From: an uncultured Bacteroidales bacterium
GTDB lineage: Bacteria > Bacteroidota > Bacteroidia > Bacteroidales > CAZLJX01
NCBI GenBank assembly: GCA_964559985.1
Contig: CAZLJX010000004.1
Span: forward strand, 24,571-88,570
DNA: 64,000 nucleotides
Reading direction: 5' to 3'
In this document: piece by piece, positions 30,634 through 61,332 of the stretch
How the letters are laid out: the number at the start of each line of letters is the position of its first letter
Numbering within the stretch: the first letter of the stretch is position 1
Notes under the pieces: generated by a model
Seen by the model: the letters and a program-made list of their open reading frames with translations, nothing else
Told to the model about the DNA's origin: nothing
Databases searched by the model: none
Position numbers and translations under genes: made by a program

Positions 30634-32151
30634 ATGCTCAAATATAAATTTATATTGGGTTTTGTATCGCGCATTTTCGTACAGATGCTTCAGCTGGTAG
30701 CCACTATTTTTATTGCCCGTATTGCAGGTCCTTCGGTGTTAGGCACCATCGCTTTCGGAATGGCTTTTGTTGATATGTTTTCATTTATTGGCAGCCTTGG
30801 ACTTGGTTCAGCACATACAAAACTCATCAATGAAGGAGAAAACATTGACGATTGCACAACCACTTATGCCATTCTTCATATTATCACCAAATTTATATTT
30901 TTTATCACGGTGCTGACGTATTTTATTTTACAGAAATACGTTTTTCATTTTCCGTTTGAAAGCAGGGAGCATGAATATGTGATCATCATCAGCATGGTTA
31001 CAGTTTTGATTAATACCATGATTGACATTCCGGTAAGCAATTTTGCAGCACGAATGGAACAAGCCAAATCGGATATTCCCGAAATGTTTCGTAATATTTT
31101 TCTTGCACCATCCCGGATTATAACGGTCATTGTTGGGGGGGCTGCTGTAGCATTGGCTTTTGTCAATTTTTTATCTTACCTCATCATCATTCCTTTTTAC
31201 TGGTATCTGTTCTTTAAAACATACCATTTTGGAAAATTCAGTTTTCCACTTGCAGGAAAATATTTCAGATATGGTATTCCATTGATTGTTTTAAGCCTAT
31301 CTGTGTCTTTTTCAAATACATTAGATAAGGTATTATTGCAATACTTTACCAACAGCGAAATGGTTGGCATTTACACTGCCGGATTCCGCATAGGGGGCTA
31401 TTTTCTGCTTATCGGACAATCGGCAGGTTTAATCTTTTTCCCGTTATTTTCAAAAGCAGTAAGTGAGCACAATATTCAGATGATTGATGATGCAATAGCG
31501 CGTTATCACAGGTTTGTTTTTCTATTTGTCATGCCTGTTATGATATTGCTGGCATTGCTCAGCAGCCCGATTGTGAGTATTATGCTTGGCGAAAAATATT
31601 ACCAAAGCATCCCTGTATTGACCATTATCACAATCGCACAACTGATATACCTGGTTCATATTCCGTACGGTAATTTAATCAGCGGCATGGGAAAATTCAG
31701 ACTGGCAGCCCTGATCAATATCATCAATGTGCTGGTAATATCCTTAGCGCTACTAATGCTGGTGCATCCCGCCTTTGCTGGATTGGCTTCAAAAGGAGCA
31801 GCGTGGTCATTCCTGATTTCCAATATTTTTCTTGCAGCCTGTTTTGTTTATTATGCAAAAAAATTTGCCCCGGGTATTCAACTCAAAACTTATTTCCGAT
31901 TTTTACTGATTGGCATTATACTATTTGTTGGTTTTTATTATTCATACTGCTGGTGGGTTGGAAGCAAAACCCTCCATCAAATCATTTTTGTTTTCCTATA
32001 TTTTACGGTAGTGTACAGCATTTTTAATTATTCAGGAATTATGAGAAATTCAGATTGGAAGTACCTGTTATCTTTGGGCCGCATGGATGAGTTATTTAAA
32101 TATGTGCGATCAGAAATTTTTTACCGGAAAAAAGAAGAACAAAAACATTGA
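30634..32151 (+). CDS. Polysaccharide flippase (Wzx / MOP superfamily)
   Basis: About 505 aa and about 12 or more hydrophobic helices. The N-terminus LQLVATIFIARIAGPSVLG is typical of polysaccharide-biosynthesis (Wzx) proteins. ATG at 30634; the track start is TTG at 30613. Confidence 0.8.
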   Translation: MLKYKFILGFVSRIFVQMLQLVATIFIARIAGPSVLGTIAFGMAFVDMFSFIGSLGLGSAHTKLINEGENIDDCTTTYAILHIITKFIFFITVLTYFILQKYVFHFPFESREHEYVIIISMVTVLINTMIDIPVSNFAARMEQAKSDIPEMFRNIFLAPSRIITVIVGGAAVALAFVNFLSYLIIIPFYWYLFFKTYHFGKFSFPLAGKYFRYGIPLIVLSLSVSFSNTLDKVLLQYFTNSEMVGIYTAGFRIGGYFLLIGQSAGLIFFPLFSKAVSEHNIQMIDDAIARYHRFVFLFVMPVMILLALLSSPIVSIMLGEKYYQSIPVLTIITIAQLIYLVHIPYGNLISGMGKFRLAALINIINVLVISLALLMLVHPAFAGLASKGAAWSFLISNIFLAACFVYYAKKFAPGIQLKTYFRFLLIGIILFVGFYYSYCWWVGSKTLHQIIFVFLYFTVVYSIFNYSGIMRNSDWKYLLSLGRMDELFKYVRSEIFYRKKEEQKH

Positions 32152-33608
32152 ATGCTGAATTAACCATATTAGAAACACAAGGTAAAACTACATTAAGCAG
32201 AGATATACCTGAATTTCTGTTGGTCATTGGATTGGCCTTTCTCGGTATTTTTTATCTGCCAAAATTTCTGACATATACCATTTTCGTTATATTTTTTATC
32301 CTTGCATGGAGGACAAAACGTGATTATTTCTGGTTTGCTGTTTGCCTGGTATTTTTTGCCAATCCGGCTGATTTTTTTAACCAGGGCGCTTCGGATGCAC
32401 CATACAGGTTGCCTTTATTTACTTTTGCGCAGGGACTTTCATTTAATGCAACCGATAGCTTTCTCATTATCTTTTTTTTAAAGGCAATATTCAAATCACC
32501 ACCATATCCCATCCTGATAAGGCCGGTTTTTTATATTTTTTTCTTCCTGATGTTTATCGGAATTCTTATGGCCATTTTTTATGGTACCGATATGGATATT
32601 CTTGTAATGAACCTGAGAATATATTTTACGGTAACAGCCGTTTATTCATTCATCAGGCTGGTCAGGAACCGCGAAAATATTTACCGGTTTTTTATTTTAA
32701 TTTCGCTGCTTATGCCCCTGGTACTGCTTGAACAGATTCTAAACAATAATGACAGTTCTGTTTTAAGCGAACTTGGAAAATCGAATGTACTGAAATTTAT
32801 GATTTTTGAAGATACTGAGGCTAAACGGCTTACCATGAAAGGTGTTCTCATCAATTTTTTCTGTATTTTCCTTCCTTTTGCCTTTTTAAAATATAATAGA
32901 ATTGCTGCTATCTGGTTCTATTTTATTATATTAGTTGTTGTGATAAGTAATTTTTTATCGGCTACCCGTTTCTGGATTTATTCGCTTACAGGTTTTATTG
33001 CACTGCTGACTCTTTTTTCGTTCAGAAATATTTCTTTTTCCTTCAGGATGCTGACTATTTCAGGTTTGATAATCATTGTAGCCTTACAGGTCGAAATTCC
33101 TTCGGAGCAGTTTCAGGCAATACTGAACCGGATAGTGCCGGCAGCAGGCTCACTGATTGAAGGAAATATTGAAGAAGTGGATTCCGGTCTTACCCGTCTC
33201 GAAAAAATAAAAACCTATAAAGCAAAAATTGACGAAAGTAAAATTATCGGATACGGCTTCAGTTCAGGCAATTTCAACGACAATGACCTGGGATTCTGGA
33301 ATACCTTGATTGCATTCGGATGGGTTGGTGTTGCAGCATACTCTGTTATGTTGCTGTACATCATTTATATCATCACCGGCACTTTGAAAAGTTCAATCTG
33401 TACAGCCGAATCAAAAAATTTACTTGTTGTTTTATTACTCGGTTGGCTGATCATTGTACTTGGGTACCTTACCGTATGGGATTTTTTTCACGTAGGAGCC
33501 GACCGGCTTTTTGCAGCCATGTGCTTAATGGGAATGATTCATATTGTAGTGGTTGAAACTCGGCTCATGTCCATTAACTTTTTGAAAAATACAATAAATG
33601 GAATCTAA
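32148..33608 (+). CDS. O-antigen polymerase/ligase-like (Wzy-type) polytopic membrane protein
   Basis: 486 aa with many TM helices and one larger loop (EIPSEQFQAILNRIVPAAGSL...RLEKIK), sitting next to Wzx. The only in-frame start near the 5' end is TTG at 32148, which overlaps the Wzx stop. Confidence 0.65.
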   Translation: MNAELTILETQGKTTLSRDIPEFLLVIGLAFLGIFYLPKFLTYTIFVIFFILAWRTKRDYFWFAVCLVFFANPADFFNQGASDAPYRLPLFTFAQGLSFNATDSFLIIFFLKAIFKSPPYPILIRPVFYIFFFLMFIGILMAIFYGTDMDILVMNLRIYFTVTAVYSFIRLVRNRENIYRFFILISLLMPLVLLEQILNNNDSSVLSELGKSNVLKFMIFEDTEAKRLTMKGVLINFFCIFLPFAFLKYNRIAAIWFYFIILVVVISNFLSATRFWIYSLTGFIALLTLFSFRNISFSFRMLTISGLIIIVALQVEIPSEQFQAILNRIVPAAGSLIEGNIEEVDSGLTRLEKIKTYKAKIDESKIIGYGFSSGNFNDNDLGFWNTLIAFGWVGVAAYSVMLLYIIYIITGTLKSSICTAESKNLLVVLLLGWLIIVLGYLTVWDFFHVGADRLFAAMCLMGMIHIVVVETRLMSINFLKNTINGI

Positions 33609-34545
33609 AGTCGCTGTCCTTTTGCTCAATTATAACCAGAGCAACATGACCCTTGAATGTGTGGCTTCGGTCTTAAACACTGATTACCCCGATTTCGAAA
33701 TTTTTGTTATCGATAACGGATCAAAAACCGAAGACAGGGAAAATCTGAAAAATAAATTACCCGGAAACATCCATTTTGCAGTTATAGAAAAAAACCGTGG
33801 CTATGTGGGTGGTATGAACTTTGCGCTTGAAACAGCATCGAAACACAACCCCGCTTATTTCCTGGTGATGAATAATGATACCCTGATTGATCCTCATGCC
33901 ATAAAATCATTGGTTGTAACTTCCCAAAAATATCAGGATCATTGCATTGTAACCGGTAAGGTTTATCATTTCGACCAGCCAGCAATCATTCAGCATATAG
34001 GATGGGAATTTACCAACAAAAAAATGCTGAAGATGAGGCGAATTGGCGATAACGTCCCCGACCAGGGACAATTTGACCAGGAAACGGTTATGGACATGAT
34101 TGACGATATTTTCTGGCTGCTTCCGGCACAGGTTTATAAGCAGGTTGGAGGCTATTCAACCTATTTCTGGTTCAACGCCGAGCAGGCCGACCTTGCCCTG
34201 CGGGCAGTAAAACAGGGAAATAAACTGATTTATACTCCCAATGCAAAACTTTGGCATAAAGGAAGTTTGAGTATCGGGGGAAGGGATAATAATCCCCGCT
34301 TAATCTATTACAATTTGTACAGTCATTTATTATTTTTGTTCCTGCATATTACCTGGTACCGTTTTATATGGGTTTTTATTGTTGTAAAAGGGCATTTCAT
34401 ATTGCATCTTGTAAAAAATATAATAAAACTCATCATTGGCAGAAAAACCAATTTTCTTTGCACTTTTGCGGAATTCAGGGCAATCATCTCTTTTGTGAAG
34501 TGGATAATAATACGGAACAAAAACAGTGGATTTAATCCGTTTTAG
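33598..34545 (+). CDS. Family 2 glycosyltransferase
   Basis: VAVLLLNYNQSNMTLECVASVLNTDYPDFEIFVIDNGS and a DxD-like MNNDT. Confidence 0.85.
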   Translation: MESKVAVLLLNYNQSNMTLECVASVLNTDYPDFEIFVIDNGSKTEDRENLKNKLPGNIHFAVIEKNRGYVGGMNFALETASKHNPAYFLVMNNDTLIDPHAIKSLVVTSQKYQDHCIVTGKVYHFDQPAIIQHIGWEFTNKKMLKMRRIGDNVPDQGQFDQETVMDMIDDIFWLLPAQVYKQVGGYSTYFWFNAEQADLALRAVKQGNKLIYTPNAKLWHKGSLSIGGRDNNPRLIYYNLYSHLLFLFLHITWYRFIWVFIVVKGHFILHLVKNIIKLIIGRKTNFLCTFAEFRAIISFVKWIIIRNKNSGFNPF

Positions 34546-34546
34546 T

Positions 34547-35854
34547 ATGGAGAAGTTTTTAAAAAAAAATCTCTGGCTTCCTTATCATTTCAGAGGATAT
34601 AAAAAAGAAACCCTTGATCTGCTTAAAGAAAGCCAGTGGTGGCCGGAAGTAACTAAAAATAAATATATATCTGAGCAACTGGCTGAAATTATTATATTTT
34701 CCCAGCAGCAAGTACCTTATTACAAAACGTATCCAGCAATTTCAGAAACTGATATGATGCAGGCCATAAAAAGCCTTCCGGTGATAACCAAAGATATTCT
34801 GAAAAAAAATGCTGATCAGTTCAATCCGCAAATTCCTGAAAAAAAATACACTATCGAAAAATCGGGAGGAACAACCGGCGATCCGGTAATACTGAAACGT
34901 TCGATGCTTTCTTCAAAGTTTATAGCAGCATCATTTTATCGTTTTCACAGCTGGCATGGAATTGGCCCCGAAGCAAGGCATGTACTTATCTGGGGTGGTA
35001 AAAGGCCTGTAAAGCCTGAAAAAAATATTTACAGCGGGTTGAGAGATCTGGTTCTGGCGCCACCTCTTGTTATCTACTCCTCAGAATTTGAAACCAAAAA
35101 ACCAAAAGAATGGATAAAAATAATTACAAATTACAAACCTGAATATTTCAGAGGATATCCATCTGCTTTAATACAGTTTGCCGAATATATTGGTAATGAA
35201 ACACATCATATTAAAAAATTAAAATTAAAAGCGGTAATACTGACAGCCGAAATGGTTTTTCAGCAGGATAATGTAGAAATTTCAAGTCATTATCATACAA
35301 AGACCATCAGGGAATACGGTGCACGCGACGGAGGGCTGATTGCCCTGGAATGCGAAAAAGGGAACCTGCATCTGCAGGACGAATCGGTATTTGCTTTTAC
35401 CCGCCCCGACCATTCCATAGTGATTACCGAGATGCATAATTTTGCCATGCCTGTTATTAATTATGAATTAGGTGATTGTATAACATTTAGCAATGAAAAA
35501 TGTAGTTGCGGGAGGACATCAAAAGTAATTTCACAAATCCTCGGACGGAAATCAGATATGGTTCGTTTATCAGATGGTACATTAAAAAGCCCTTATCTGA
35601 TTGATGAAATCGTACAAAAAATCAGATCTCGTTATGGAATAGCCTGTATCAAAAAATACATGGCCATTCAAAATGAAGAGGGAATCACCTTTCAGATTAT
35701 TCCAGGAACTGAGCATAACAATCATATTGACAATGGAATCATTGCCGAAACAATTGAAGCAACCGGAATTAATCATGTTTCAGTGTTGCATGTTGATTCC
35801 CTGGAAACAACTTCGGCAGGCAAATACCGCAATTTCAAATCGGCCATTTTATGA
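34547..35854 (+). CDS. Phenylacetate-CoA-ligase-like (PaaK/CapK family) adenylate-forming enzyme
   Basis: EKSGGTTGDPV (adenylation P-loop-like motif) and an overall layout like the CapK-type proteins of capsule loci. ATG at 34547, directly after the GT2 stop; the track start is GTG at 34526. Confidence 0.75.
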   Translation: MEKFLKKNLWLPYHFRGYKKETLDLLKESQWWPEVTKNKYISEQLAEIIIFSQQQVPYYKTYPAISETDMMQAIKSLPVITKDILKKNADQFNPQIPEKKYTIEKSGGTTGDPVILKRSMLSSKFIAASFYRFHSWHGIGPEARHVLIWGGKRPVKPEKNIYSGLRDLVLAPPLVIYSSEFETKKPKEWIKIITNYKPEYFRGYPSALIQFAEYIGNETHHIKKLKLKAVILTAEMVFQQDNVEISSHYHTKTIREYGARDGGLIALECEKGNLHLQDESVFAFTRPDHSIVITEMHNFAMPVINYELGDCITFSNEKCSCGRTSKVISQILGRKSDMVRLSDGTLKSPYLIDEIVQKIRSRYGIACIKKYMAIQNEEGITFQIIPGTEHNNHIDNGIIAETIEATGINHVSVLHVDSLETTSAGKYRNFKSAIL

Positions 35855-37086
35855 AAACACGATTTATATACCTTGCCACGCTCGATTTTGGGAATGTGTT
35901 TAAAACGCAGATTATAAGCTGGTTGAACTTATACCGGCAAAACGGAATTGATTTCAGCCTGATCAGGATTTATGATATCAGAAAACTATTGCGTTTTAAT
36001 AAAGTTACAGATGAAAATAACAAAATCAGGAATCTGTTTCCCTTTGTTTTATATAACCGCTGGTTTATTCCGGGGAAAAACATAGTCAGCCGGATTTTAT
36101 CTTTTTTATTTGTTACAATCCAATTTTTGAGCATCCTGTTTTCTCGTAAAAAAACTGTTTTTCAGACCCGAAGTCCGCAATTTTGGAGAGAGTTTAAGTT
36201 TTTAAAGACCCTGTTTGGCAACAGGTGTATTGTCATTTTCGATTCAAGGGCGGCGGCGGCTGAAGAATTAAAATATCAGCATAAGCATCATCTTACCAAC
36301 CACATGATAAAAAGAATCAAAAATACCGGGGAAGATGAAAAACAAATGAATATTGTATCCGATAAAGTTTTTTGCGTCTCAAACCATCTGATTGCATACC
36401 ATTTGGAGCAAAACCCACAGCTTACACCCGCTAAAATGGTTTATTATCCATGCAGTGCGGATTCAAAATATTTCTTTTACTCGTCCGAAGAACGACAAAT
36501 AATGAGAAATAAACTCGGTTTAAACGATAAGATTATCATTGTATATAGCGGCAGTCTTGACCTTCCGTGGCATATGGCAGAAGAAATATTCGGGTTTTTC
36601 AAATTGTTGAACCAGCAAAATTCCGGAACTTTCCTTTTGGTGTTGAGTTATGAAACAGAAATTGCCGGGAAACTAAGCCTGAAATGTGAATTAACAGAAA
36701 ACAATTACTTATGTAAGGCAATAGAAAACAACGAAATAAGAAAATATCTGAACGCTGCCGATGCAGGAATTATTATGCGTGAAGATGTACCTATGAACCA
36801 GGTAGCATCGCCTACCAAATTTGCCGAATACCAGTTGTGTGGTTTACCTGCAATACTGACTCCCGGTGTAGGCGATTTTTCAGATTTTGTTGTCAGGCAT
36901 CAAACCGGTGGTTGTTACAATCTGCTTCATCCCGATGAATCAATATTATGCCAGGTTACCAGCGATTTAAAATCTTGGTTTAACAATGAGAATCTCAGGA
37001 AAACAATATCTGAAACCGGATACAACCATTTTTCCAAACAAATTGTTTTAAATCATATTTTAGAAATATATTCGTCCTTTAAATAA
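35851..37086 (+). CDS. GT-B fold (GT4-like) glycosyltransferase
   Basis: The C-terminal half, IIIVYSGSLD...ASPTKFAEYQLCGLPAILTPGVGD, resembles the GT4 nucleotide-sugar binding region. ATGA overlap with the upstream gene. Confidence 0.65.
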   Translation: MKTRFIYLATLDFGNVFKTQIISWLNLYRQNGIDFSLIRIYDIRKLLRFNKVTDENNKIRNLFPFVLYNRWFIPGKNIVSRILSFLFVTIQFLSILFSRKKTVFQTRSPQFWREFKFLKTLFGNRCIVIFDSRAAAAEELKYQHKHHLTNHMIKRIKNTGEDEKQMNIVSDKVFCVSNHLIAYHLEQNPQLTPAKMVYYPCSADSKYFFYSSEERQIMRNKLGLNDKIIIVYSGSLDLPWHMAEEIFGFFKLLNQQNSGTFLLVLSYETEIAGKLSLKCELTENNYLCKAIENNEIRKYLNAADAGIIMREDVPMNQVASPTKFAEYQLCGLPAILTPGVGDFSDFVVRHQTGGCYNLLHPDESILCQVTSDLKSWFNNENLRKTISETGYNHFSKQIVLNHILEIYSSFK

Positions 37087-37097
37087 CGGATTATACC

Positions 37098-38234
37098 ATG
37101 AAAATCATCTTTTCCGGCGATTTGGCCCCGGTCGGGCGAGTTGAAACCCTGCTCACAGCAGGACAAACCAGCATGGTTTTCGGTGAGGTAATTCCATTGT
37201 TTCAGCAAGCCGGTTTTGTTGTTGCAAACCTCGAATGCCCTGTTTGTGGCAGCGATAAGTCAATTGTCAAATCCGGACCACATTTAAAGGCAAATCCGGC
37301 AGTTATAAAAGCAATCCGCGAGGCTGGCATTGGTGTTGTAAGCCTTGCCAACAACCATATCAGGGATTTTGGAGATGATGGGGTAAAAGAAACCTTGGAT
37401 AACTGCCACATAAATAATATACTGATTGTGGGTGCCGGGAAAAATAATGATGACGCCTCAAAACCAATTATTCTGGAAAAAGACGGGATCAGAACCGCTT
37501 TGATATCATCGTGCGAGGAAGAATTCTCGGCCTCAGCACAAAACCGCGCCGGAGCAAATATTTTTAACCCATATACATTTTTCAGCAGCATCAAACAATT
37601 AAAGGCTGAAGTTGATTTTATCATCAGCATCTTTCATGGTGGCACCGAAGGCTATCCCCTGCCCGACCCCGAAATGGTGCAGATTTGCCGTTTTATGATT
37701 GCTGCAGGGGCCGATGCCGTTATCTGCCACCATAGCCATTGTTTCAGCGGTAATGAAACCTGGAACGAAAAACCCATTTACTACGGACTGGGAAATTTTG
37801 TATTTGATGATGCTGAAATGACTGGAAAAGAATGGAATACAGGAATTCTGGCCGAAATTACCTTAGGACAAGGTCATATTGAAACGGTAAACCACTTCAT
37901 CAGCCAGCATGATTATAACCGTGGCATTATACTCCTTTCTGGAGAAGACCTGACGGATGCCCAACATAAATTCAAAAATTTGTCTCAAACCATTGCCAAC
38001 CATGAATTACTCGAAAAAGAATGGAACCGGTTTGCCGGGAAAAATGCTTATGGATATTTCAAAAACATCATAAAACCCGGAATTTTCAGAAAAATTTTAT
38101 ATAAATTTGGTTTGGCCGATTACAAAAAATTTCCGGCTACAAAGGTTGCCAATACATTAAATCTGCTGCGATGCCGTTCGCATAACCGGCTTGCAGTAAA
38201 AACACTTGAAAACATTTTGAATCATGACCATTAA
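37098..38234 (+). CDS. CapA / PGA_cap family metallophosphoesterase-like protein
   Basis: FSGDLAPVGR, SLANNHIRDFG, IFHGGTEGYP and CHHSHC are the metal-ligand motifs seen in poly-gamma-glutamate CapA-family proteins. Confidence 0.8.
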   Translation: MKIIFSGDLAPVGRVETLLTAGQTSMVFGEVIPLFQQAGFVVANLECPVCGSDKSIVKSGPHLKANPAVIKAIREAGIGVVSLANNHIRDFGDDGVKETLDNCHINNILIVGAGKNNDDASKPIILEKDGIRTALISSCEEEFSASAQNRAGANIFNPYTFFSSIKQLKAEVDFIISIFHGGTEGYPLPDPEMVQICRFMIAAGADAVICHHSHCFSGNETWNEKPIYYGLGNFVFDDAEMTGKEWNTGILAEITLGQGHIETVNHFISQHDYNRGIILLSGEDLTDAQHKFKNLSQTIANHELLEKEWNRFAGKNAYGYFKNIIKPGIFRKILYKFGLADYKKFPATKVANTLNLLRCRSHNRLAVKTLENILNHDH

Positions 38235-39312
38235 AGTTGGAATACATAAAGCATGGCACAACAAAGTTGACCCCGAGCTGGAAATATACCGCAAAATATT
38301 GTCGCACAACAATATTCATTTTATCGATATGGATTCGAGCCAACCCGGATTCTGGGATGAAGTTAAAACCATTACCCATTTCATTTTCAAATGGGGACAT
38401 ATCGACAATCACCACCAACTGGCATTGACCATTATTCCCATCATCGAAAAAGAATATGGCATTCCCTGTTTTCCAAATACAGCCACCTGCTGGCATTATG
38501 ACAACAAAATACGGCAGGACCTGCTGTTGAAAGCCCATGGATTCCCGTTTTGCGAAAGCTTTATATGCTGGGAAAAAGCTCCGGCCATGAAATGGGCCGA
38601 AACTGCCCGGTTACCGCTGGTTTTTAAATTAACCAAAGGAGCCAGTTCACACAATGTGGTTCTGGTAAAATCAAGGTACCATCTGAAAAAAATAATCCGC
38701 CGTATGTTTGGCCGGGGAGTCAACCAGGATAAAATTGGTTTTTTTAAAAGATTAAAAGTTTTTAATTACAGCCTGAAAAAATTATATATCCATTACGGCA
38801 TCATCATCAGAAATTTTTTATACGGACGCGACCTTACCCACTGGTGGATGAAACATAAAAACTATGTGTATTTTCAGAAGTTCATGCCCGGCAACGAATA
38901 CGACACCCGGGTAACCATCAGTGGCGGTAAACGCGCCTATGCCCTGATAAGGTACAACCGTAAAGGCGATTTCAGGGCATCGGGCAGTAATATGTGGAGC
39001 CTCGACCACGATAAAATTGATATGCAGTTTGTTAAACTGGCTTTTGAAATCTCAAAAAAACTCGGATTTCAGTCTATGGCTTTCGATTTCATGTATGACC
39101 AAAACCGTAAACCTGTTATTGGCGAAATTACCTATTGCTTTGGCGACTGGCCCGAATTTTCTGACGGTCACTGGGACGAAAACCTGGTATGGCACACCGG
39201 AAATCATTGCCCCCAGTATTTCGAACTGGTTGACCTGCTGGATATGCCTGATCTGAAAATGCCCAAAATAGACTATACCTCGCCCTACCTGAAAGCAAAA
39301 ATCAAAAAATAA
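38224..39312 (+). CDS. ATP-grasp-like ligase (RimK-like pattern), function unknown
   Basis: LPLVFKLTKGASSHNVVLVKS, VYFQKFMPGNEYDTRVTISG and MAFDFMYDQNRKPVIGEITYCF follow the ATP-grasp strand/loop pattern. Confidence 0.6.
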   Translation: MTIKVGIHKAWHNKVDPELEIYRKILSHNNIHFIDMDSSQPGFWDEVKTITHFIFKWGHIDNHHQLALTIIPIIEKEYGIPCFPNTATCWHYDNKIRQDLLLKAHGFPFCESFICWEKAPAMKWAETARLPLVFKLTKGASSHNVVLVKSRYHLKKIIRRMFGRGVNQDKIGFFKRLKVFNYSLKKLYIHYGIIIRNFLYGRDLTHWWMKHKNYVYFQKFMPGNEYDTRVTISGGKRAYALIRYNRKGDFRASGSNMWSLDHDKIDMQFVKLAFEISKKLGFQSMAFDFMYDQNRKPVIGEITYCFGDWPEFSDGHWDENLVWHTGNHCPQYFELVDLLDMPDLKMPKIDYTSPYLKAKIKK

Positions 39313-39318
39313 ACCCCC

Positions 39319-39774: not shown

Positions 39775-39778
39775 CAAC

Positions 39779-49978: not shown

Positions 49979-49980
49979 CC

Positions 49981-52227: not shown

Positions 52228-52240
52228 AAATCACCCATTT

Positions 52241-54797: not shown

Positions 54798-54802
54798 ATG
54801 GA

Positions 54803-55978
54803 ATGAAAAAGAGGGTTTTACATATTACCCGCAGGGCTACCGAACTGAAAGCGACGTTTATTAAAATTCAATACGAAAATCATATCGAATACGAAGCATT
54901 GGCCGCATTCCGCATCAATGATCTTTCAACTGACGATGGCCGCTTTCCTGAATTGCAGCTCAAAAATGAAAATTTGCTCAATTTATCTGAAAATGAAACC
55001 TTAAAAGAAAAAATCTTTTATAAGCTTTTTAAAATAATATCAAACAGGCAGGTGAAAATGCTGAGTGACTTTATTAATAAAAACGATATCCGACTTTGTC
55101 ATTTTCATTTCGGTTCTGATTGCGGTGTTTTTTACCCGTTTACCAAACATTTACCTGTTCCGGCAGTAGTTTCATATTATGGTTACGATACATCATCATT
55201 CCCGAAGATGTTATCCGGATATGGCGCAAAGTACCTTCAAAACAGGGTTTTCAAACATGTTAACCTCTCATTGGCTATGAGTCCCGACATGCAGACCGAC
55301 CTTGAAAAAGCAGGTTGCCCGGCCGGAAAAATCAAAGTGCATTATTACGGTATTGAAACCGAAAAATTTTTTATGCAGCGACAGTACAACACGCAAAACA
55401 AAATCAACATACTGATCATTGCCAGCCTGGTCCCTCAAAAAGGACATGAATTCCTGTTAAAAGCCATCCAATTGTTAAAAAATGAAAATAGCTGCCATTT
55501 TGAACTCAGAATTGTTGGTGGAGGAGAATTGGAAAACCATCTTAAAAATCTGGTAAAAAAACTTCATTTACAAGATGTTGTAATTTTCCCCGGCGTTGTA
55601 AGGTATGGTTCACAGTCTATGATGGATGAACTGAAAAACGCCGATATATTTGTTCATCCGAGTGTTACGGCTCCTAACGGAGATAAGGAAGGAATTCCCG
55701 GTACCATCGTTGAAGCCATGGCTGCAGGTCTGCCGGTTGTTTCTACTTTTCATGCAGGTATACCTTTTATTATTGAACCCGGAAAATCAGGTGAACTGGT
55801 AAAAGAGTATGATTATCACGGCTTGAAAAATGCTTTGTCAAACCTGATAGCCAGCAAAGATTTACGCGAAAAATATGGCAAAGCAGGACAGGAATTTGTA
55901 ATGCAAAACCTGAACCATAAAAGGAAAATCATTCAGCTTGAAAATACGTATGACAATCTGATAAATAACATTCAATGA
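54803..55978 (+). CDS. Family 4 glycosyltransferase
   Basis: EGIPGTIVEAMAAGLPVVSTFHAGIPFIIEPGKSGELV (EX7E region) and IIASLVPQKGHEFLL. Confidence 0.85.
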   Translation: MKKRVLHITRRATELKATFIKIQYENHIEYEALAAFRINDLSTDDGRFPELQLKNENLLNLSENETLKEKIFYKLFKIISNRQVKMLSDFINKNDIRLCHFHFGSDCGVFYPFTKHLPVPAVVSYYGYDTSSFPKMLSGYGAKYLQNRVFKHVNLSLAMSPDMQTDLEKAGCPAGKIKVHYYGIETEKFFMQRQYNTQNKINILIIASLVPQKGHEFLLKAIQLLKNENSCHFELRIVGGGELENHLKNLVKKLHLQDVVIFPGVVRYGSQSMMDELKNADIFVHPSVTAPNGDKEGIPGTIVEAMAAGLPVVSTFHAGIPFIIEPGKSGELVKEYDYHGLKNALSNLIASKDLREKYGKAGQEFVMQNLNHKRKIIQLENTYDNLINNIQ

Positions 55979-56035
55979 ATTTTTAATGCCGACACACATT
56001 ATGGCCTTATTTTATGAATAAACGGTTTGACAACA

Positions 56036-56983
56036 ATGAACAATGAAAAAATAATTCCGCTATTACGTGGCACTGTTACACATCTTCCCGGAATAAAAAA
56101 AGTAATACCAAACCGCACAGGGGGTACCATTGAAAGCAGGTATTGTTATTCGGTATGGATGAGGCATTTAATATACCTGAGCCATTTTAAAAATGAAATT
56201 CCAGAAAATTGTGCCGAACTCGGTCCCGGTGATTCATTCGGAATCGGTTTGGCTGCGCTATTATCAGGTTGTCAGTGTATTCATGCTTTAGATGTTGTTA
56301 AATACGGCTCAAACAAAAACAACCTCAGAATTTTTAACGAACTGGTTGAACTCTTCAGAAATAAGGCAGACATTCCTGACGAAACGGAATACCCAAATGT
56401 AAAACCCAAAATAGAAAACTATCATTTCCCATCCGGGATAATTTCCGATAAAATCTTACATGAATCTTTATTGGAAAACCGGCTTAATGCCATTAGAAAG
56501 GAAATCTCTGACCTTTATAATCCACAGAACTCGTTCATAAAAGTTTACATACCCTGGAACAATGCCGGTATTATTCAAAATGAAAGTATAGATTTTATTT
56601 ATTCCCAGGCGGTTCTTGAACACGTTGAAAATCTGGAAGATACCTATCTGGCAATGAAAAAATGGCTTAAGCCATTGGGATTCATGTCACATACTATTGA
56701 TTTTAAATCGCATGGTATAACAAAAAGCTGGAATGGGCATTGGTTATTCAGCGATTTTGAATGGAATATTGTAAAAGGTGGTAAACCTTTTCTCATCAAC
56801 AGGCAGCCACAATCAAAACATATTGAACTACATTTAAAGTTCGGATTTGAGATTGCAGTTGCTCTTCCTGTAAAACTGAAAAATAACCTGAAAATAAAAG
56901 ACATATCCGATAAATTCAAAAACTTATCTGAAACTGATCTGACGACCAGTGGTATTTATATCTTATCAAAAAAAATGATCTGA
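56036..56983 (+). CDS. Putative class I SAM-dependent methyltransferase
   Basis: Motif I-like AELGPGDSFGIG, and post-motif FIYSQAVLEHVENL. ATG at 56036; the track start is TTG at 56027. Confidence 0.6.
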   Translation: MNNEKIIPLLRGTVTHLPGIKKVIPNRTGGTIESRYCYSVWMRHLIYLSHFKNEIPENCAELGPGDSFGIGLAALLSGCQCIHALDVVKYGSNKNNLRIFNELVELFRNKADIPDETEYPNVKPKIENYHFPSGIISDKILHESLLENRLNAIRKEISDLYNPQNSFIKVYIPWNNAGIIQNESIDFIYSQAVLEHVENLEDTYLAMKKWLKPLGFMSHTIDFKSHGITKSWNGHWLFSDFEWNIVKGGKPFLINRQPQSKHIELHLKFGFEIAVALPVKLKNNLKIKDISDKFKNLSETDLTTSGIYILSKKMI

Positions 56984-57047
56984 TTTCTGCTTAGCTGGCA
57001 TAATTTGCATTTCCGCCATTGCATTAAAACGATCTGATAAAATAAAT

Positions 57048-57055
57048 TAACTTTG
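57048..57055 (+). promoter_or_regulatory. Candidate -7 promoter box TAacTTTG upstream of asnB
   Basis: TAnnTTTG match 31 nt upstream of the ATG at 57086, in a 100-nt gap. Confidence 0.3.
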
Positions 57056-57085
57056 CTAACCTTGGTTTGTTACAAAAGAATAAAC

Positions 57086-58960
57086 ATGTGCGGCATTTGC
57101 GGAATATTGAACTATAACGGGCAGGATACCGGCGAAATCATAAAAAAAATGACCGCCATCATGGCTCACCGCGGGCCCGATGATGAAGGAACCTGGCATA
57201 ACAATCATATAGCACTGGGACAGCGGCGGCTTTCCATTATAGACCTGTCGCCGGCCGGGCATCAGCCGATGTGGACTGCCGATAACCGCTTTGTGATTGT
57301 ATTCAACGGTGAAATCTACAATTTCCCCGAGCTCCGCAAAAACCTCATCAAAGAAGGAATGGTTTTCCGCAGCCAGTCCGACACCGAAGTGATTCTGTAC
57401 CTCTACAGCAAATATAAAACCAACACTCCTAAATACCTTAACGGCATTTTTGCATTTGCCATATACGACACCTTTGAAAAAGAACTTTTTATTGCCCGCG
57501 ACCATTTTGGTGTAAAACCGTTATATTATTCGGTACACAACAACTGTCTTGCTTTTGCATCCGAAATAAAATCGTTGCTGCAGGCACCCGGTTTCAGTGC
57601 ATCGTTAAACCTGCAGGCGCTCGACAGCCTGCTTACCTTCCGTCATGTGCCATCGCCCGACACCTTGTTTAATGGCATTTTTAAACTTCCGCCTGCCTCC
57701 GGTATGCTTGTAAAGCAGAATGTTGATATGACGATTGAATGTTACTGGGACTACACCCCACAGATAGACTACAAAAGAACCGAAAACGATACCGTTGCCA
57801 GGCTCAGGTTGCTATATGAAGAAGCCATACAACGACAAATGATAAGCGATGCACCGGTTGGCCTGTCGCTCAGCGGAGGTGTTGATTCGGGCGTGCTGAT
57901 GGCCCTGATGTCACAGTTTTCGGGTGCACCCGTAAAAGCATTTACCGTAGGATTTGAAGACGGTGAACAATACAATGAAATTGAAAAAGCCCGGGAGACA
58001 GCAAAAATGTTTGGAGCCGGTTTTTACCCATACCTGATCAAAACCAACGATTATATTGATTTTTTTGAAAAATATATCTGGCATCTCGAGGAACCCATGG
58101 GTAACGAATCGGCAGCTGCCTATTATTTTGTGGCACGCGAAGCCGGGAAACAGGTAAAAGTATTGCTCAACGGACAGGGAATTGACGAAACCATGGCCGG
58201 ATACGACCGCTACCTGGGTGCGGCCTACGGCAGATATTACAGAATGGTGCCGGCTATGATCCGCAACAGTGTTGTGAAACCGCTGGCTTTGCAGCTCAAA
58301 GGCAGGGAACAGCTGAAAAGAAGTGTATTGTCGCTGGGGATAAAAGACGAAAAAGAAAGGCTCCGGCATATTTATTCCATCCTGCCCGGAACCATGAAAC
58401 ATCAACTTTACAATCCCGGGTTCATCCATGCATTAACTGAAAAGAAAGACGATTATTTTTCGGCTTACTATCAACGTACCGGGCATCTGACTGAGCTGGA
58501 GAAAATGCTGTATATTGATGCCCGTACATCTTTGTCCGACAACCTGTTGCTGTGCGAAGACAAAATGGCCATGGCTTCATCGGTCGAGGCAAGGGTACCC
58601 TTCCTTGATGTGCCGTTGGCAGAATTTATCGAAACCATTCCGGGAACTTTGAAGCTGAAAGGATTAAACAGAAAATACATGCATAAAAAAGCGGTTGAAA
58701 AATGGTTGCCCAAAGAAAAAATATACCATAAGAAAATAGGGTTTGACATACCGATGGACTTATGGCTGAAAACAAAACTAAAACCGCTTTTTATGGAACT
58801 CACCGGCAATGCCTCATCAGTAACACACAATTACCTGGACCACAATATGATTGAGCGCATTTATTGCCAGCATGAAACAGGCAGGGAAAATCATACCCGT
58901 TTCCTTTTCCTGCTGCTGAGCATTGAGTTGTGGAACAAAAAATTCCTGATTGATGGCTGA
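57086..58960 (+). CDS. asnB: Asparagine synthase (glutamine-hydrolysing), canonical
   Basis: MCGICGIL (Cys2 nucleophile), RGPDDEG, HRRLSIIDL, ARDHFGVKPLYY and an intact PP-loop SLSGGVDS. The start is taken at ATG 57086. Confidence 0.9.
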   Translation: MCGICGILNYNGQDTGEIIKKMTAIMAHRGPDDEGTWHNNHIALGQRRLSIIDLSPAGHQPMWTADNRFVIVFNGEIYNFPELRKNLIKEGMVFRSQSDTEVILYLYSKYKTNTPKYLNGIFAFAIYDTFEKELFIARDHFGVKPLYYSVHNNCLAFASEIKSLLQAPGFSASLNLQALDSLLTFRHVPSPDTLFNGIFKLPPASGMLVKQNVDMTIECYWDYTPQIDYKRTENDTVARLRLLYEEAIQRQMISDAPVGLSLSGGVDSGVLMALMSQFSGAPVKAFTVGFEDGEQYNEIEKARETAKMFGAGFYPYLIKTNDYIDFFEKYIWHLEEPMGNESAAAYYFVAREAGKQVKVLLNGQGIDETMAGYDRYLGAAYGRYYRMVPAMIRNSVVKPLALQLKGREQLKRSVLSLGIKDEKERLRHIYSILPGTMKHQLYNPGFIHALTEKKDDYFSAYYQRTGHLTELEKMLYIDARTSLSDNLLLCEDKMAMASSVEARVPFLDVPLAEFIETIPGTLKLKGLNRKYMHKKAVEKWLPKEKIYHKKIGFDIPMDLWLKTKLKPLFMELTGNASSVTHNYLDHNMIERIYCQHETGRENHTRFLFLLLSIELWNKKFLIDG

Positions 58961-60113
58961 TAGAAAGAAAAATATTCTGTTTATTGTTGAAAACGATTAT
59001 TTCCCTCAGGATATCAGGGTTTTGAACGAAGTGGTTTCTCTTTCGCAATGTTTTAATTGCTATGTTATTGCCCCTCGCGGAAAAAATCAGCAATGGATTG
59101 AAAAGTATTCCGGATCAACCTGCTACCGGTTTCCGCATATTGAAGCCCGGCAAATACATTTTATTTTTATTGAATATTTAATTGCAGCTTTTTGGATAGC
59201 ATTTTATGTTCCTTTTATTTCCCTTATTAAAAGAATTCGTGTAATTCATGTTGCCAACCCGCCTGATTTTATCATCCCAATAATATGCTGGCTCCGGATT
59301 TCAGGGATAAAAATCATTTTTGACATGCATGACCTTTCGGTCGAGACATTTAAAGGAAAATCAATCAGCCGGACATTAACAGGAAAAATTTTTCAGGCTT
59401 TCCTGGTTTTCTTTGAAAAATTAAGCGTTAAAAGCAGCCATAGAATCATTGCCACCAATCATTCTATTAAAAATTATGCACTGGAGAAAACCAACAAACC
59501 GGTTTTTGTAGTCAGGAACAGTAATCGGGTTATTTACAATAATTTGAATGAAATTAATAAAACCGCATCTGAAAAAATGATCATCGGTTACTTTGGGGTA
59601 TTATCTGACGATGAAGCTTCAGGACTGGAAAATCTGGTTACACTTGCTGATTCTCTGTTAAAAAAAAATATTTCCTTCGAGTTACAAATAATTGGGAGAG
59701 GAACCGGAATAAAAGTTTTGCAGCAAATTCTGGTTACCAGAGGTTTGACAGAATATTTTAAATTTTATGGTTTTATTCCACTTCCTGAAGCTTTTAAATT
59801 TATCAGAAATTTTGATTTCGGACTGGTTACCTGGGGATATATGCCTAAAAACCATCTTCATACTGCCATGAAAATTATGGATTATATGTGTTGTGGCGTT
59901 CCGGTTTGTTCGCTCAGATTAAAAGAACAAATTTATTCAACAAATGGTATTGGAATCCATACAGATGATTTTACAATGATGGCAGATGAGTTAATTAAAA
60001 TATACCGTGATTCAAATATTTATGAAATGTTAAGGCAAAAAACCCTTGATCATTTTAACCAGAATCTGGCCTGGGAAATTCAGGAAAAAAACCTTTTTGA
60101 AGCATATCAATAA
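58953..60113 (+). CDS. GT-B fold (GT4-like) glycosyltransferase
   Basis: NILFIVENDYFPQDIRV and IIGYFGVLSDDE...KIMDYMCCGVPVCS resemble WbuB-like GT4 enzymes. It overlaps the asnB stop. Confidence 0.65.
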   Translation: MADRKKNILFIVENDYFPQDIRVLNEVVSLSQCFNCYVIAPRGKNQQWIEKYSGSTCYRFPHIEARQIHFIFIEYLIAAFWIAFYVPFISLIKRIRVIHVANPPDFIIPIICWLRISGIKIIFDMHDLSVETFKGKSISRTLTGKIFQAFLVFFEKLSVKSSHRIIATNHSIKNYALEKTNKPVFVVRNSNRVIYNNLNEINKTASEKMIIGYFGVLSDDEASGLENLVTLADSLLKKNISFELQIIGRGTGIKVLQQILVTRGLTEYFKFYGFIPLPEAFKFIRNFDFGLVTWGYMPKNHLHTAMKIMDYMCCGVPVCSLRLKEQIYSTNGIGIHTDDFTMMADELIKIYRDSNIYEMLRQKTLDHFNQNLAWEIQEKNLFEAYQ

Positions 60114-60278
60114 TAACTATTGTGAAAAGTTAAAATATCCATTCATATTTTAACCCATTAATAAATAAAGGACTTAATTGATTATCTATTTTACAAATAA
60201 TGATTATACATAAAAGACATATAACTTCTAATATATTGCCCTAATAAAAGATATAATCAGACTTTTTTTAAAATCAGC

Positions 60279-60286
60279 TATATTTG
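60279..60286 (+). promoter_or_regulatory. Candidate -7 promoter box TAtaTTTG upstream of the FemAB-like gene
   Basis: TAnnTTTG match in a 199-nt AT-rich gap, 27 nt upstream of the TTG at 60313. Confidence 0.3.
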
Positions 60287-60312
60287 CCCTGATAATAAAT
60301 GTATTCAGTATT

Positions 60313-61332
60313 TTGATAACGATCATCAATCCTTTAACTGATTCCCGCTGGCTTTCCTTTATATCGGGGAATTCCGGTTCGTGCATTTTTCATCACCCGG
60401 CATGGCTGGTTTTGCTTGAAAAACAATATGGATTTGAAACGAAAGCAGCAGTTTTAACAGAAAATGACAACATTACTGCCGGAATACCCTATGCTGTTAT
60501 TAAAGGTAAAAAATGGATTTCGCTGCCTTTTTCCGATTACTGTAACCCGCTTTTTAACAGCGATGAACAAAAAACATTGCTATGGAGCGAGCTTCATGAT
60601 TTTTTCGGAATAAATTCCGTTACGGCCGAAATCAGGTGGCGTGCGCCTGGTGAAATACCTTTCGCAAGTGTTACTGAGCACTGGCTTCATATAAAAAATA
60701 TTGAAGCGACAGAAAATGAGCTTTTTAGAAGTCTAAAAACCACCCGGGTGCAGCAACCCATACAAAAAGCCATCAAAAATAACCTCACTTTCGAAACCAG
60801 AACCGACCAGGAAGCCATGCAGTATTTTTACCGGCTGCATCTTCAAAACAGGCGCAGGCTGGGTGTTCCGGTGCAACCCCGCAACTACTTTACCCATTTC
60901 AATAACCTGATTATTGAGCCCGGGCTTGGTTTTACCGGTCTGGTAAAAAAAGACGATACAATGATTGCAGCAGCCATTTTCTGCGGTTTCAACCAGACTA
61001 TGACCTATAAATACGGAGCATCTGACCCTGCTTACCATCACCTGTCGCCCAACCATTTTATGCTGTGGAAAGCCATGCTGTTTGCAAAAGAAAAAGGTTT
61101 CAAGGTATTTGATTTTGGCAAAACATCGTTCTCAACACCAGGCCTGCGTGATTTTAAAGCCGGTTTTGGCTGCACAGAAAGCGAACTGTCATTTTCTTAT
61201 TTTCCCCGGCCACCTGCAAAAAATTTTATGGAAAAAACAAACCATTATGTTGTAAAACCCATCCTGAAAAACTCGCCTTTATGGGTCTGCCGCTTTACAG
61301 GGGAGCTTTTTTACAAACGATTCGGAACCTGA
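60313..61332 (+). CDS. FemAB-family / GNAT-fold aminoacyl- or acyl-transferase
   Basis: 339 aa. FHHPAWLVLLEKQYGFE, FYRLHLQNRRRLGVPVQPRNYF and YKYGASDPAYHHLSPNHFMLWKAMLFAKEKGFKVFDFG are typical of FemAB-like proteins found in EPS loci. TTG start. Confidence 0.7.
   Translation: MITIINPLTDSRWLSFISGNSGSCIFHHPAWLVLLEKQYGFETKAAVLTENDNITAGIPYAVIKGKKWISLPFSDYCNPLFNSDEQKTLLWSELHDFFGINSVTAEIRWRAPGEIPFASVTEHWLHIKNIEATENELFRSLKTTRVQQPIQKAIKNNLTFETRTDQEAMQYFYRLHLQNRRRLGVPVQPRNYFTHFNNLIIEPGLGFTGLVKKDDTMIAAAIFCGFNQTMTYKYGASDPAYHHLSPNHFMLWKAMLFAKEKGFKVFDFGKTSFSTPGLRDFKAGFGCTESELSFSYFPRPPAKNFMEKTNHYVVKPILKNSPLWVCRFTGELFYKRFGT

Follow-up and report, generated by a model that had tools for sequence, protein, structure and literature searches.

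Strain-variable composite surface-polysaccharide locus in an uncultured Bacteroidales bacterium: a putative Wzx/Wzy-type head and two recurring cassettes

Many O antigens and capsules contain amide-linked amino and hydroxy acids; these shape antigenicity, and the enzymes attaching them are mostly unassigned. Amide-linked Gly, Ala, Ser and Thr are found in E. coli O antigens (PMC7685785), and N-malyl amino sugars are known in O-polysaccharides, including one from Flavobacterium (PMC3210612). In Porphyromonas and Tannerella, VimE, an enzyme of the family CE4, removes an N-acetyl group and VimA, of the TIGR03019 type, adds serine or glycine, the uronamide being formed by WbpS, an AsnB of the TIGR03108 type (PMC7468200). 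Three-component periplasmic glycosylation is recognized in O-antigen loci by three hallmarks—an undecaprenyl phosphate (Und-P)-sugar synthase, a flippase and a glycosyltransferase of the GT-C fold—with GtrA/GtrB/Gtr*, ArnC/ArnEF/ArnT, CsbB/GtcA/YfhO and the pentofuranose system of Citrobacter O1/O2 as examples (PMC11127046). The present work deals with a glycan locus situated in a 64,000-nucleotide stretch of DNA (hereafter the window) from contig CAZLJX010000004.1 of an uncultured Bacteroidales bacterium, which an earlier note, made from the sequence alone, had described as one Wzx/Wzy locus unusually rich in amide-bond-forming enzymes.

The locus consists of 28 open reading frames (ORFs), all on the plus strand, extending from 30613/30634 to 61332; the ORF map thus confirms the co-directional count reported earlier. 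Neighbouring ORFs mostly overlap or lie less than 12 nt apart, and only three intergenic gaps exceed 100 nt (Table 1; genes are referred to below by their start positions). Families were assigned by Pfam, NCBIfam and PDB sequence searches, the scanned ORFs being the main ones of at least 100 amino acids upstream of the locus and all 28 within it. The assignments agree nearly one for one with the previous ones (Wzx, two GT2, four GT4-like and one GT-C glycosyltransferases, WecE, an acyltransferase, a deacetylase, two methyltransferases and a short-chain dehydrogenase/reductase), and seven of the eight enzymes to which amide or acyl chemistry had been attributed do belong to the proposed families; CapA gives no evidence for amide formation. 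The MaoC-type hydratase (39319), a 93-residue ORF with an AbiEii-family gene, the CitE-like lyase (40701) and the LPG_synthase_TM protein (41655) were absent from the earlier note.

Based on these results, the locus is a real and fairly ordinary surface-glycan cluster, composed of a Wzx/Wzy head and two recurring cassettes. What had appeared as an odd, one-off accumulation of amide-forming enzymes resolves into cassette B, having a precedent in the Vim/WbpS enzymes, and cassette A, which is widespread but unstudied. The preferred reading, to which a probability of roughly 0.55 may be given, is that the region represents a strain-variable composite surface-polysaccharide locus of three modules—the head (30634–34545), cassette A (34547–47941) and cassette B (47938–61332)—the two cassettes probably adding amino-acid- or acyl-decorated amino sugars. 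The gene families, the recurrence of the modules and the mosaicism between strains, all detailed below, are observed directly.

Concerning cassette B, the AsnB encoded at 57086 is bona fide, possessing both Cys2 and the motif SGGVDS and matching TIGR01536 with 465 bits (cut-off 267); it also matches TIGR03108 over the full length (460 bits, with a trusted cut-off of 817). The other AsnB-like protein, at 52968, is degenerate, having no Cys2 and the PP-loop TGGFDG. The FemAB-family protein matches TIGR03019 with E = 1e-34 (120 bits, with a trusted cut-off of 260), and its family profile retrieved from the PDB aminoacyl-tRNA-dependent transferases only (e.g. 6snr, E = 4.7e-18), which strengthens the FemAB assignment made before. 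The CE4 deacetylase at 48971 had no match in the PDB sequence search; it shares 38–42% identity with the deacetylase of cassette B in two of the related loci compared with the window, L178 and L179 (L-numbers are the labels of these loci). Homologues of the degenerate AsnB-like protein (30–33% identity) open cassette B in L100, L172, L178 and L179, the same four containing homologues of the GT4 enzyme at 54803 (38–44% identity). The whole set—AsnB-like protein, GT4b, CE4, AsnB, GT4c and FemAB—is present in the same order in three metagenomic loci (L100/L179, L108/L178 and L172) with 21–45% identity. Of the 37 metagenomic loci of at least 6 kb, 25 have a GT4c homologue (21–53% identity) together with the FemAB gene. 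In L097 a GT4 with 53% identity to that at 58953 lies directly 5' of FemAB. The nearest FemAB homologue (48% identity) comes from a locus encoding AsnB, a formyltransferase, a CE4 deacetylase and a GT4 sharing 53% identity with GT4 58953, followed by FemAB.

The set of AsnB, FemAB, deacetylase and GT4 has, as the literature bears out, a studied precedent producing an aminoacylated uronamide sugar (PMC7468200). By analogy, deacetylation of an N-acetylated amino-uronic acid by the CE4 enzyme would expose an amine, to which the FemAB-type enzyme would add an aminoacyl group from aminoacyl-tRNA, and AsnB 57086 would amidate the carboxyl group. Further amides may be due to the Cys-less AsnB-like enzyme and to the third ATP-grasp ligase, the sugars being presumably inserted by the GT4 enzymes. 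In L179 (Ga0208244_100385, positions 11946–17395) cassette B is followed by genes for DegT, a WbaP-like Bac_transf protein, GFO_IDH_MocA, an LbH protein and a UDP-sugar dehydrogenase. Judged by their families, these would constitute a Wbp pathway (WbpB-, WbpD- and WbpA-type) with a WbaP-type initiating transferase and may serve as a template for the genes missing in the window.

The same precedent underlies the best-surviving rival explanation, according to which an anchor glycan equivalent to anionic lipopolysaccharide (A-LPS) is the product of cassette B or perhaps of the entire locus, its aminoacylated linking sugar being joined to the cargo of a type IX secretion system (T9SS) as in Porphyromonas and Tannerella. 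The locus does encode a FemAB resembling VimA, a CE4 resembling VimE, a GT4 resembling VimF and an AsnB resembling WbpS, L179 has the full Wbp set with WbaP, proteins with T9SS C-terminal domains adjoin the locus in both strains compared, and the linking sugar itself has a precedent (PMC7468200). The gene set is, however, common in organisms without T9SS, in exopolysaccharide (EPS) loci of the PEP-CTERM type (PMC7468200; descriptions of TIGR03019 and TIGR03108), WbpA, WbpB and WbpE are not found in the window, and genes for T9SS cargo are so numerous that their proximity may be due to chance, the match of the flanking C-terminal domain being, moreover, sub-threshold. The anchor-glycan explanation is therefore considered unlikely.

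As far as cassette A is concerned, the three-module reading relies mainly on three membrane-associated functions. The GT2 at 42637 can be aligned over its full length with GtrB (5ekp, E = 7.6e-60), ArnC (9hwj, E = 1e-50) and dolichol-phosphate mannose synthase (DPMS; 5mlz, E = 2e-21), has two C-terminal transmembrane segments and matches the NCBIfam models of PgfS and ArnC with E = 1e-57, below the model cut-offs. The LPG_synthase_TM protein at 41655, which matches TIGR00374 with 84 bits (cut-off 43) and is not of the GtrA/SMR type, is a flippase-like protein whose gene is located directly 5' of that of a GtrB-like GT2 in 7–8 relatives. The GT-C glycosyltransferase at 46520 occupies the same position in the sister strain described below; its PDB sequence search gave no match, not even to ArnT, and its AlphaFold model, from the single sequence, was too poor for a fold search (pLDDT 43). 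Judged by family and arrangement, these three proteins form a putative three-component periplasmic glycosylation system. The presence of this trio—an Und-P-sugar synthase, a flippase-like protein and a GT-C—means that the locus is not purely of the Wzx/Wzy type. The earlier note had named as a refuting case an initiating transferase hidden among its GT4-like or flippase-like products; this case is realized in part, since one of the glycosyltransferases, GT2 42637, is predicted to charge the lipid carrier, although it is not a phosphoglycosyltransferase.

These proteins also bear on the view that the region is simply one conventional locus of the Wzx/Wzy type, in which a single, heavily amidated repeat unit is built in the cytoplasm by all 28 products and the GT-C and the flippase-like protein are accessory or irrelevant. 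The co-directional and tightly packed genes, the one Wzx and one Wzy-like gene and the six cytoplasmic glycosyltransferases all agree with it. It has become distinctly unlikely, however, because periplasmic glycosylation following polymerization is typically marked by a full-length GtrB/ArnC homologue encoded together with a flippase-like protein and a GT-C (PMC11127046), and because the two cassettes occur independently of each other and of the Wzx/Wzy pair of the window. The single homogeneous unit of the earlier note can thus no longer be upheld, the trio lying inside it.

The signature gene of cassette A, the ATP-grasp ligase at 44212, is most similar in the PDB to an L-amino acid ligase (3vot, E = 2.5e-32). 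Its family is well conserved, comprises more than 7,500 homologues at E < 1e-10, with an identity of about 60% even for those from Aminicenantes and Syntrophaceae metagenome-assembled genomes (MAGs), and is carried, in species-representative genomes, by at least 585 species of many phyla, including Bacteroidota, Cloacimonadota, Planctomycetota and Clostridia. The best match in that scan was 62% identical, so that the window's own species is not among them; cultivable carriers are Bacteroides faecichinchillae JCM 17102, Clostridium sartagoforme JCM 1413, Gracilimonas sp. BCB1 and Solibaculum intestinale. A census by tblastn and hidden Markov models (HMMs) covered 80 related loci, proximity being counted in the 48 with at least 5 kb on each side. 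Within 5 kb of the ATP-grasp gene and on the same strand, a WecE-like aminotransferase was found in 38 of these 48, a GtrB-like GT2 in 29 and an LbH protein in 25, these four constituting the core of the cassette. The closest loci (L014, L016, L022, L044 and L059) also hold genes for the MaoC hydratase, the CitE-like lyase, a CapK-like ligase and PGA_cap as well as the flippase-like gene; in L022, from Cloacimonadota, the genes follow almost the same order as in the window. Of 60 polytopic proteins encoded up to 5 kb from the ATP-grasp gene, 17 belonged to GT-C families (PMT_2 8, YfhO 4, DUF2142 4 and GtrII 1) and 16 were Wzx-like. In the 80 loci, the window's Wzy-like protein, weak GT4s, deacetylase and FemAB did not co-occur with cassette A, and genes of the Wzx, AsnB and other GT4 types did so sporadically. 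No description of this gene combination was found in the literature. Cassette A is a widespread, yet unstudied, putative three-component system with a WecE/ATP-grasp core.

Its breadth also counts in the case of an Arn/Lgm-like system altering envelope charge, in which the GT-C would move the amino sugar to lipid A or to the lipopolysaccharide core. An aminotransferase, an N-acyltransferase, an ArnC-like GT2 (E = 1e-50), a flippase, a PMT_2-family GT-C and a nearby CE4 deacetylase would suit it. The aminotransferase is, however, of the WecE type rather than ArnB (216 bits versus a cut-off of 631) and no ArnA-like dehydrogenase or formyltransferase is present, these being also the grounds on which membership of the Arn (L-Ara4N) pathway was rejected. 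Since, in addition, the cassette core is found in Clostridia and other monoderm MAGs without lipid A, the deacetylase belongs to cassette B and the GT-C has no sequence match to ArnT, such a system is improbable here. Protein O-glycosylation of the Pgf-/PMT-like kind, in which Ser/Thr residues of envelope proteins would receive the sugar from Und-P through the GT-C, can be called very improbable. PgfS of the Streptococcus protein-glycosylation system is the best NCBIfam match of GT2 42637 (E = 1.3e-57) and the GT-C matches the protein-mannosyltransferase-type PMT_2, but the scores fall far short of the model cut-offs (195 versus 500), PMT_2 is a broad family including ArnT-like enzymes, and the relatives carry cassette A within polysaccharide loci that also have Wzx-like genes.

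Within the three-module reading, the following route can be envisaged for cassette A. WecE would make a dTDP-4-amino-4,6-dideoxyhexose, the 4-amino group of which would be N-acylated or aminoacylated by ATP-grasp 44212 and the VioB-type acyltransferase; the RmlA/RmlB-type genes flanking the cassette in L006 and L008 fit a dTDP-sugar substrate. As acyl donor, a hydroxy-dicarboxylic acyl-CoA (malyl-/citramalyl-like) may arise from the joint action of the CitE-like lyase, MaoC hydratase and CapK-like ligase. The lyase at 40701 matches TIGR01588 citE (E = 5e-58), RipC (E = 2.5e-33) and the malyl-CoA lyase 5ugr (E = 1.9e-29), and the CapK-like ligase matches phenylacetate-CoA ligase 9s3l (E = 7e-18), its homologue in L008 bearing CapK_C. 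PGA_cap and the RimK-like ligase, the genes of which adjoin both in the window and in L017, may tailor a peptide part. PGA_cap 37098 matches NF038314, the MslH epimerase (E = 2e-19), and PDB entry 8gq9 (E = 3.6e-15), and since the sole characterized homologue found, MslH, is a peptide epimerase (PMC8179263), it suggests an aminoacyl or peptidyl epimerase, i.e. epimerization rather than amide formation. Synthesis of poly-gamma-glutamate (CapBCA/PgsBCA) was rejected, PGA_cap being present without CapB and CapC. The GtrB/ArnC-type GT2 42637 would then load the finished sugar on Und-P, the flippase-like 41655 would carry it to the periplasm and GT-C 46520 would attach it to the polymer as a side branch.

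A further-reaching idea, advanced only tentatively and with the odds against it, is that cassette A represents an uncharacterized pathway of many phyla in which a 4-amino-4,6-dideoxyhexose bearing an N-aminoacyl or hydroxy-dicarboxyl-acyl group passes from a dTDP donor to Und-P and is grafted by the GT-C on envelope polymers in the periplasm, the ATP-grasp enzyme being of the long-missing type that attaches acids to amino sugars by an amide bond. If true, it would add a new donor class to three-component glycosylation.

The strain variability became evident from a 26.1-kb sister contig of another sample (SRR30230055_332, i.e. L090 + L005), which by blastn is 96–97% identical to the window in three blocks (window 30185–39769, 40700–41558 and 42655–48507). 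The MaoC and HpcH genes abut in the sister contig, so the stretch separating them in the window is a mid-operon insertion that splits the pair. Its AbiEii-family gene matches the Pfam family with 44 bits (cut-off 22.5) over part of the profile, and AbiEii in PADLOC weakly (E = 6e-4), whereas the 93-residue ORF upstream had no family match; a toxin–antitoxin pair is possible. The window segment 41559–42654, i.e. the 1.1-kb flippase-like gene, is replaced in the sister by 7.65 kb (12598–20251) encoding a 428-residue protein, LicD, a second PGA_cap, a nucleotidyltransferase, a second Wzx-like protein and two ATPgrasp_ST proteins, which makes the sister strain even richer in ligase genes. The apparent exchange of one candidate flippase for another would be consistent with a flippase being needed at that position. 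The left homology breakpoint (30185) lies 116 bp upstream of the ferredoxin gene, and beyond it a T9SS cargo gene in the sister faces a lipoprotein with tetratricopeptide repeats (TPR; 29190–30086) in the window; the shared block starting 5' of the ferredoxin gene, the latter travels with the glycan locus. Such loci are thus remodelled fast between near-identical strains, and for the organism the region is an ordinary serotype-determining one, one more hypervariable surface-glycan region.

With regard to the head, Wzx has 11 predicted transmembrane segments, and the GT2 at 33598 matches in the PDB only N-terminal chondroitin synthase/SpsA-type structures, and is thus not GtrB-like. The Wzy-like protein at 32148 had no Pfam or NCBIfam match even at E = 10 and merely three homologues among 5.8 billion proteins. 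One of these, P0123 (24% identity, E = 9e-21), matches Wzy_C with 27.4 bits, below the cut-off of 31.7, in the part aligned with residues 258–399 of the Wzy-like protein; an AlphaFold model from the four-sequence alignment was too poor for a fold search (pLDDT 45). Wzx, this very divergent Wzy-like polymerase and the GT2, along with the GT4s downstream, would assemble and polymerize a repeat unit linked to undecaprenyl diphosphate, with the initiating phosphoglycosyltransferase, WaaL/Wzz and the nucleotide-sugar genes (RmlA/B, WbpA/B) presumably encoded elsewhere in the genome.

It should be pointed out that several observations weigh against the three-module reading. The Wzy identity of 32148 is a weak one, linked through 24% identity to a protein with a sub-threshold Wzy_C match, the hits for both GT4 35851 and GT4 58953, the deacetylase, the methyltransferase at 56036 and two of the ATP-grasp proteins are weak, and the matches of FemAB, AsnB and the GT4s to the NCBIfam models of the PEP-CTERM/Vim type are below the trusted cut-offs. 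The window contains no RmlA/RmlB or 4,6-dehydratase gene for the steps before WecE and no gene for a UDP-sugar dehydrogenase or GFO_IDH_MocA, i.e. no WbpA/WbpB to supply cassette B. Neither phmmer nor HMM iteration revealed a homologue of GT-C 46520 in the 80 related loci, the association with GT-C enzymes having been established instead via the Pfam families of the neighbouring polytopic proteins; at about 17 of 60 of these, the link is frequent, not universal. To our knowledge, there is no precedent for an enzyme of the GtrB/ArnC type using a dTDP-sugar. The substrates, the sequence of the reactions and what the GT-C uses as acceptor are, finally, deduced from gene families, and all the material comes from metagenome assemblies.

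Among the scanned ORFs there was neither a Bac_transf nor a Glycos_transf_4/WecA-type match, i.e. no initiating phosphoglycosyltransferase, and no match to the Wza, Wzc or UpxY families, in agreement with the absences claimed previously. Such absences, listed in the earlier note, are unremarkable and normal for O-antigen-type loci; in E. coli, WecA sits outside the O-antigen clusters. A Bacteroides-type UpxY capsule locus was rejected, without a NusG-like gene or a Wza/Wzc match, the ORFs upstream of the locus, where UpxY/UpxZ were sought, encoding the ferredoxin and the TPR lipoprotein and no NusG-like protein. Membership of the PEP-CTERM/exosortase EPS loci was likewise rejected, the scanned ORFs giving no match to the exosortase or PEP-CTERM protein families.

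Of the two boundaries suggested earlier, the ferredoxin gene with its terminator-like hairpin—the best such site within 29–46 kb—was found on the left, whereas on the right the T9SS domain of the convergent ORF scored only sub-threshold (TIGR04183, 19.6 bits versus 23). This ORF begins directly after a stop codon and has no signal peptide, so it may be part of a longer or disrupted gene. A second large protein with a T9SS C-terminal sorting domain is encoded at 17611–20634, and the TPR lipoprotein mentioned above precedes the ferredoxin. The internal promoters proposed for the AT-rich gaps gained support, each of the three gaps containing TAnnTTTG, which we take to be the −7 promoter element of Bacteroidota and which argues for sub-operons. 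Four copies were observed versus 0.38 expected in shuffles (P = 2.5e-4), 13–47 nt 5' of the next start codon. No such box was seen upstream of Wzx; sigma-70-type promoter matches and terminator counts did not exceed those of shuffles, and the two-box pattern TTTG-N17-23-TAnnTTTG was not enriched, the −7 box alone being informative. Rfam and tRNA scans of the window gave nothing.

Two further parts of the window may be mentioned. At 2826–9491, 21 kb upstream of the glycan locus, a signalling block encodes two CheR, CheB, a GAF protein, a PAS/GAF/SpoIIE phosphatase, DUF6272 and SiaC, resembling a SiaABC-like partner-switch system of the type controlling aggregation and biofilm. The segment 21158–29157 encodes an HprK-related-kinase-B-like protein, an archaeal-type signal peptidase I-like protein and an ABC exporter; next come the genes of a LytTR response regulator and a 1323-residue hybrid sensor kinase with Reg_prop/Y_Y_Y domains. 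The segment may be a peptide export or signalling unit.

Table 1 Features of the glycan locus and its flanks (window positions; SAM, S-adenosylmethionine)
Positions	Strand	Feature	Evidence
30301–30468	+	4Fe-4S ferredoxin, flank gene	NF058577 FdxA_fam 87 bits (cut-off 65)
30489–30513	+	Intrinsic-terminator-like hairpin, 3' of ferredoxin gene	11-bp stem, 6 GC pairs, T-run
30634–32151	+	Wzx/MOP-family flippase	Polysacc_synt_3 82 bits (cut-off 23), Polysacc_synt 79, MatE 29
32148–33608	+	Wzy-like polytopic membrane protein (weak assignment)	At least 9 transmembrane segments
33598–34545	+	Ordinary GT2 glycosyltransferase	Glycos_transf_2 E = 1.6e-19
34547–35854	+	PaaK/CapK-like adenylate-forming enzyme, accessory	NCBIfam PaaK/F390-related, E = 1e-19 to 1e-7
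35851–37086	+	Weak GT4-like glycosyltransferase	Glycos_transf_1 21.6 bits, below cut-off; weak TIGR04157, TuaH
37098–38234	+	PGA_cap (CapA-family) protein, accessory	PF09587 196 bits
38224–39312	+	RimK-like ATP-grasp ligase (weak)	RimK Pfam 28 bits; TIGR00768 E = 1.4e-13
39319–39774	+	MaoC-type (R)-enoyl-CoA hydratase, RipB/Ich-like	MaoC_dehydratas E = 2.6e-19; NF038241 RipB_Ich E = 3e-42
39770–40699	+	Strain-specific 930-bp AT-rich insertion	93-residue ORF 39779–40060; AbiEii-family nucleotidyltransferase 40041–40661
40701–41585	+	CitE/malyl-CoA-lyase-like acyl-CoA C-C lyase (HpcH family)	HpcH_HpaI E = 6e-40
41655–42647	+	Flippase-like LPG_synthase_TM protein, candidate Und-P-sugar flippase	PF03706 103 bits
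42637–43569	+	Polyisoprenyl-phosphate glycosyltransferase, GtrB/ArnC type	Full-length PDB matches
43566–44222	+	NeuD/PglB/VioB-family sugar N-acyltransferase (LbH)	TIGR03570 166 bits (cut-off 160.8); Hexapep
44212–45375	+	L-amino-acid-ligase-type ATP-grasp, cassette A signature gene	ATP-grasp_4 E = 4e-22; LAL_C2
45379–46527	+	WecE-type dTDP-4-keto-6-deoxyhexose 4-aminotransferase	NF008687 531 bits vs 375; TIGR02379 469 vs 435 (equivalog cut-offs)
46520–47941	+	GT-C fold glycosyltransferase, PMT_2 family	PF13231 35 bits (cut-off 26); at least 8 transmembrane segments
47938–49005	+	GT4 glycosyltransferase, stp2-like, cassette B start	Glyco_trans_1_4 E = 3e-26; TIGR03088 stp2 E = 2.4e-30
48971–49978	+	CE4 polysaccharide deacetylase (VimE-like role), weak	Polysacc_deac_1 29 bits
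49981–51219	+	ATP-grasp ligase, PRK12767 'CPS-like' type, weak	NF009406 E = 4e-14; CPSase_L_D2 weak
51242–52063	+	SAM-dependent methyltransferase	Methyltransf_23 E = 6.7e-24
52064–52240	+	AT-rich gap, GC 0.24	TAnnTTTG at 52186 and 52220
52241–52975	+	Classical short-chain dehydrogenase/reductase, 3-hydroxybutyrate dehydrogenase/FabG-like	adh_short E = 2e-28; NF009093 E = 1.8e-20
52968–54797	+	AsnB-like protein without glutaminase nucleophile	TIGR01536 E = 2e-13, part of length
54803–55978	+	GT4 glycosyltransferase (GT4b)	Glycos_transf_1 E = 3e-33
56036–56983	+	Weak methyltransferase-like protein	Methyltransf_11 22 bits; no NCBIfam match
56984–57085	+	AT-rich gap	TAnnTTTG at 57048
57086–58960	+	Glutamine-dependent amidotransferase, AsnB/WbpS-like	Asn_synthase E = 5e-79
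58953–60113	+	GT4 (GT4c) paired with FemAB, VimF-like position, weak	Glyco_trans_1_4 E = 7.5e-10
60114–60312	+	AT-rich gap, GC 0.21	TAnnTTTG at 60279
60313–61332	+	FemAB-family (VimA-like) aminoacyl transferase	Acetyltransf_6 E = 7e-14; FemAB E = 3e-12
61338–63806	−	Convergent flank ORF	Weak T9SS C-terminal sorting domain; no Pfam match

In comparison with the known systems, the locus shares with the three-component ones the full-length GtrB/ArnC-homologous GT2, the adjacent candidate flippase and the GT-C, all in a locus of the Wzx/Wzy type. It differs in its predicted donor, a WecE-derived 4-amino-4,6-dideoxyhexose instead of Glc, GlcNAc, Ara4N or Ribf, in the added tailoring by ATP-grasp and LbH enzymes and the acyl-CoA sub-pathway, and in the flippase candidate, an LPG_synthase_TM protein and not one of the GtrA/SMR type. 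With the Wbp/Vim system of P. gingivalis and T. forsythia (PMC7468200) it seems to have in common the TIGR03019-type FemAB, CE4, GT4 and TIGR03108-type AsnB, a conserved set linked in the relative L179 to WbpA/B/D/E and WbaP. The window has, however, no WbpA, WbpB or WbpE-type aminotransferase, its sole DegT being of the WecE type, and the locus encodes in addition a Cys-less AsnB-like enzyme, a further ATP-grasp ligase and methyltransferases. FemAB, AsnB and the GT4s find their best NCBIfam matches in families of the PEP-CTERM/XrtA EPS loci (TIGR03019, TIGR03108, TIGR03088 and TIGR04063), although all scores are below the trusted cut-offs and the host is a T9SS-bearing member of the Bacteroidota.

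The MaoC hydratase and CitE-like lyase, encoded as a pair, resemble the itaconate/C5-dicarboxylate CoA pathway (RipB/Ich and RipC/Ccl) and malyl-CoA lyase; here, in contrast, the pair is found inside glycan loci, with a CapK-like ligase instead of a CoA-transferase, is presumably biosynthetic and scores below the equivalog cut-offs. Finally, the equivalog-level WecE and the VioB-family acyltransferase correspond to the Fuc4NAc/Qui4N pathways (WecE/VioA with WecD/VioB) of the enterobacterial common antigen and O antigens, and chemical precedents for a 4-amino-6-deoxyhexose with an N-acyl or aminoacyl group, as predicted here, exist among the O antigens with amide-linked amino acids (PMC7685785). 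Unlike in those pathways, the sugar here seems to be routed via Und-P and a GT-C, in the company of an ATP-grasp ligase of uncharacterized role.

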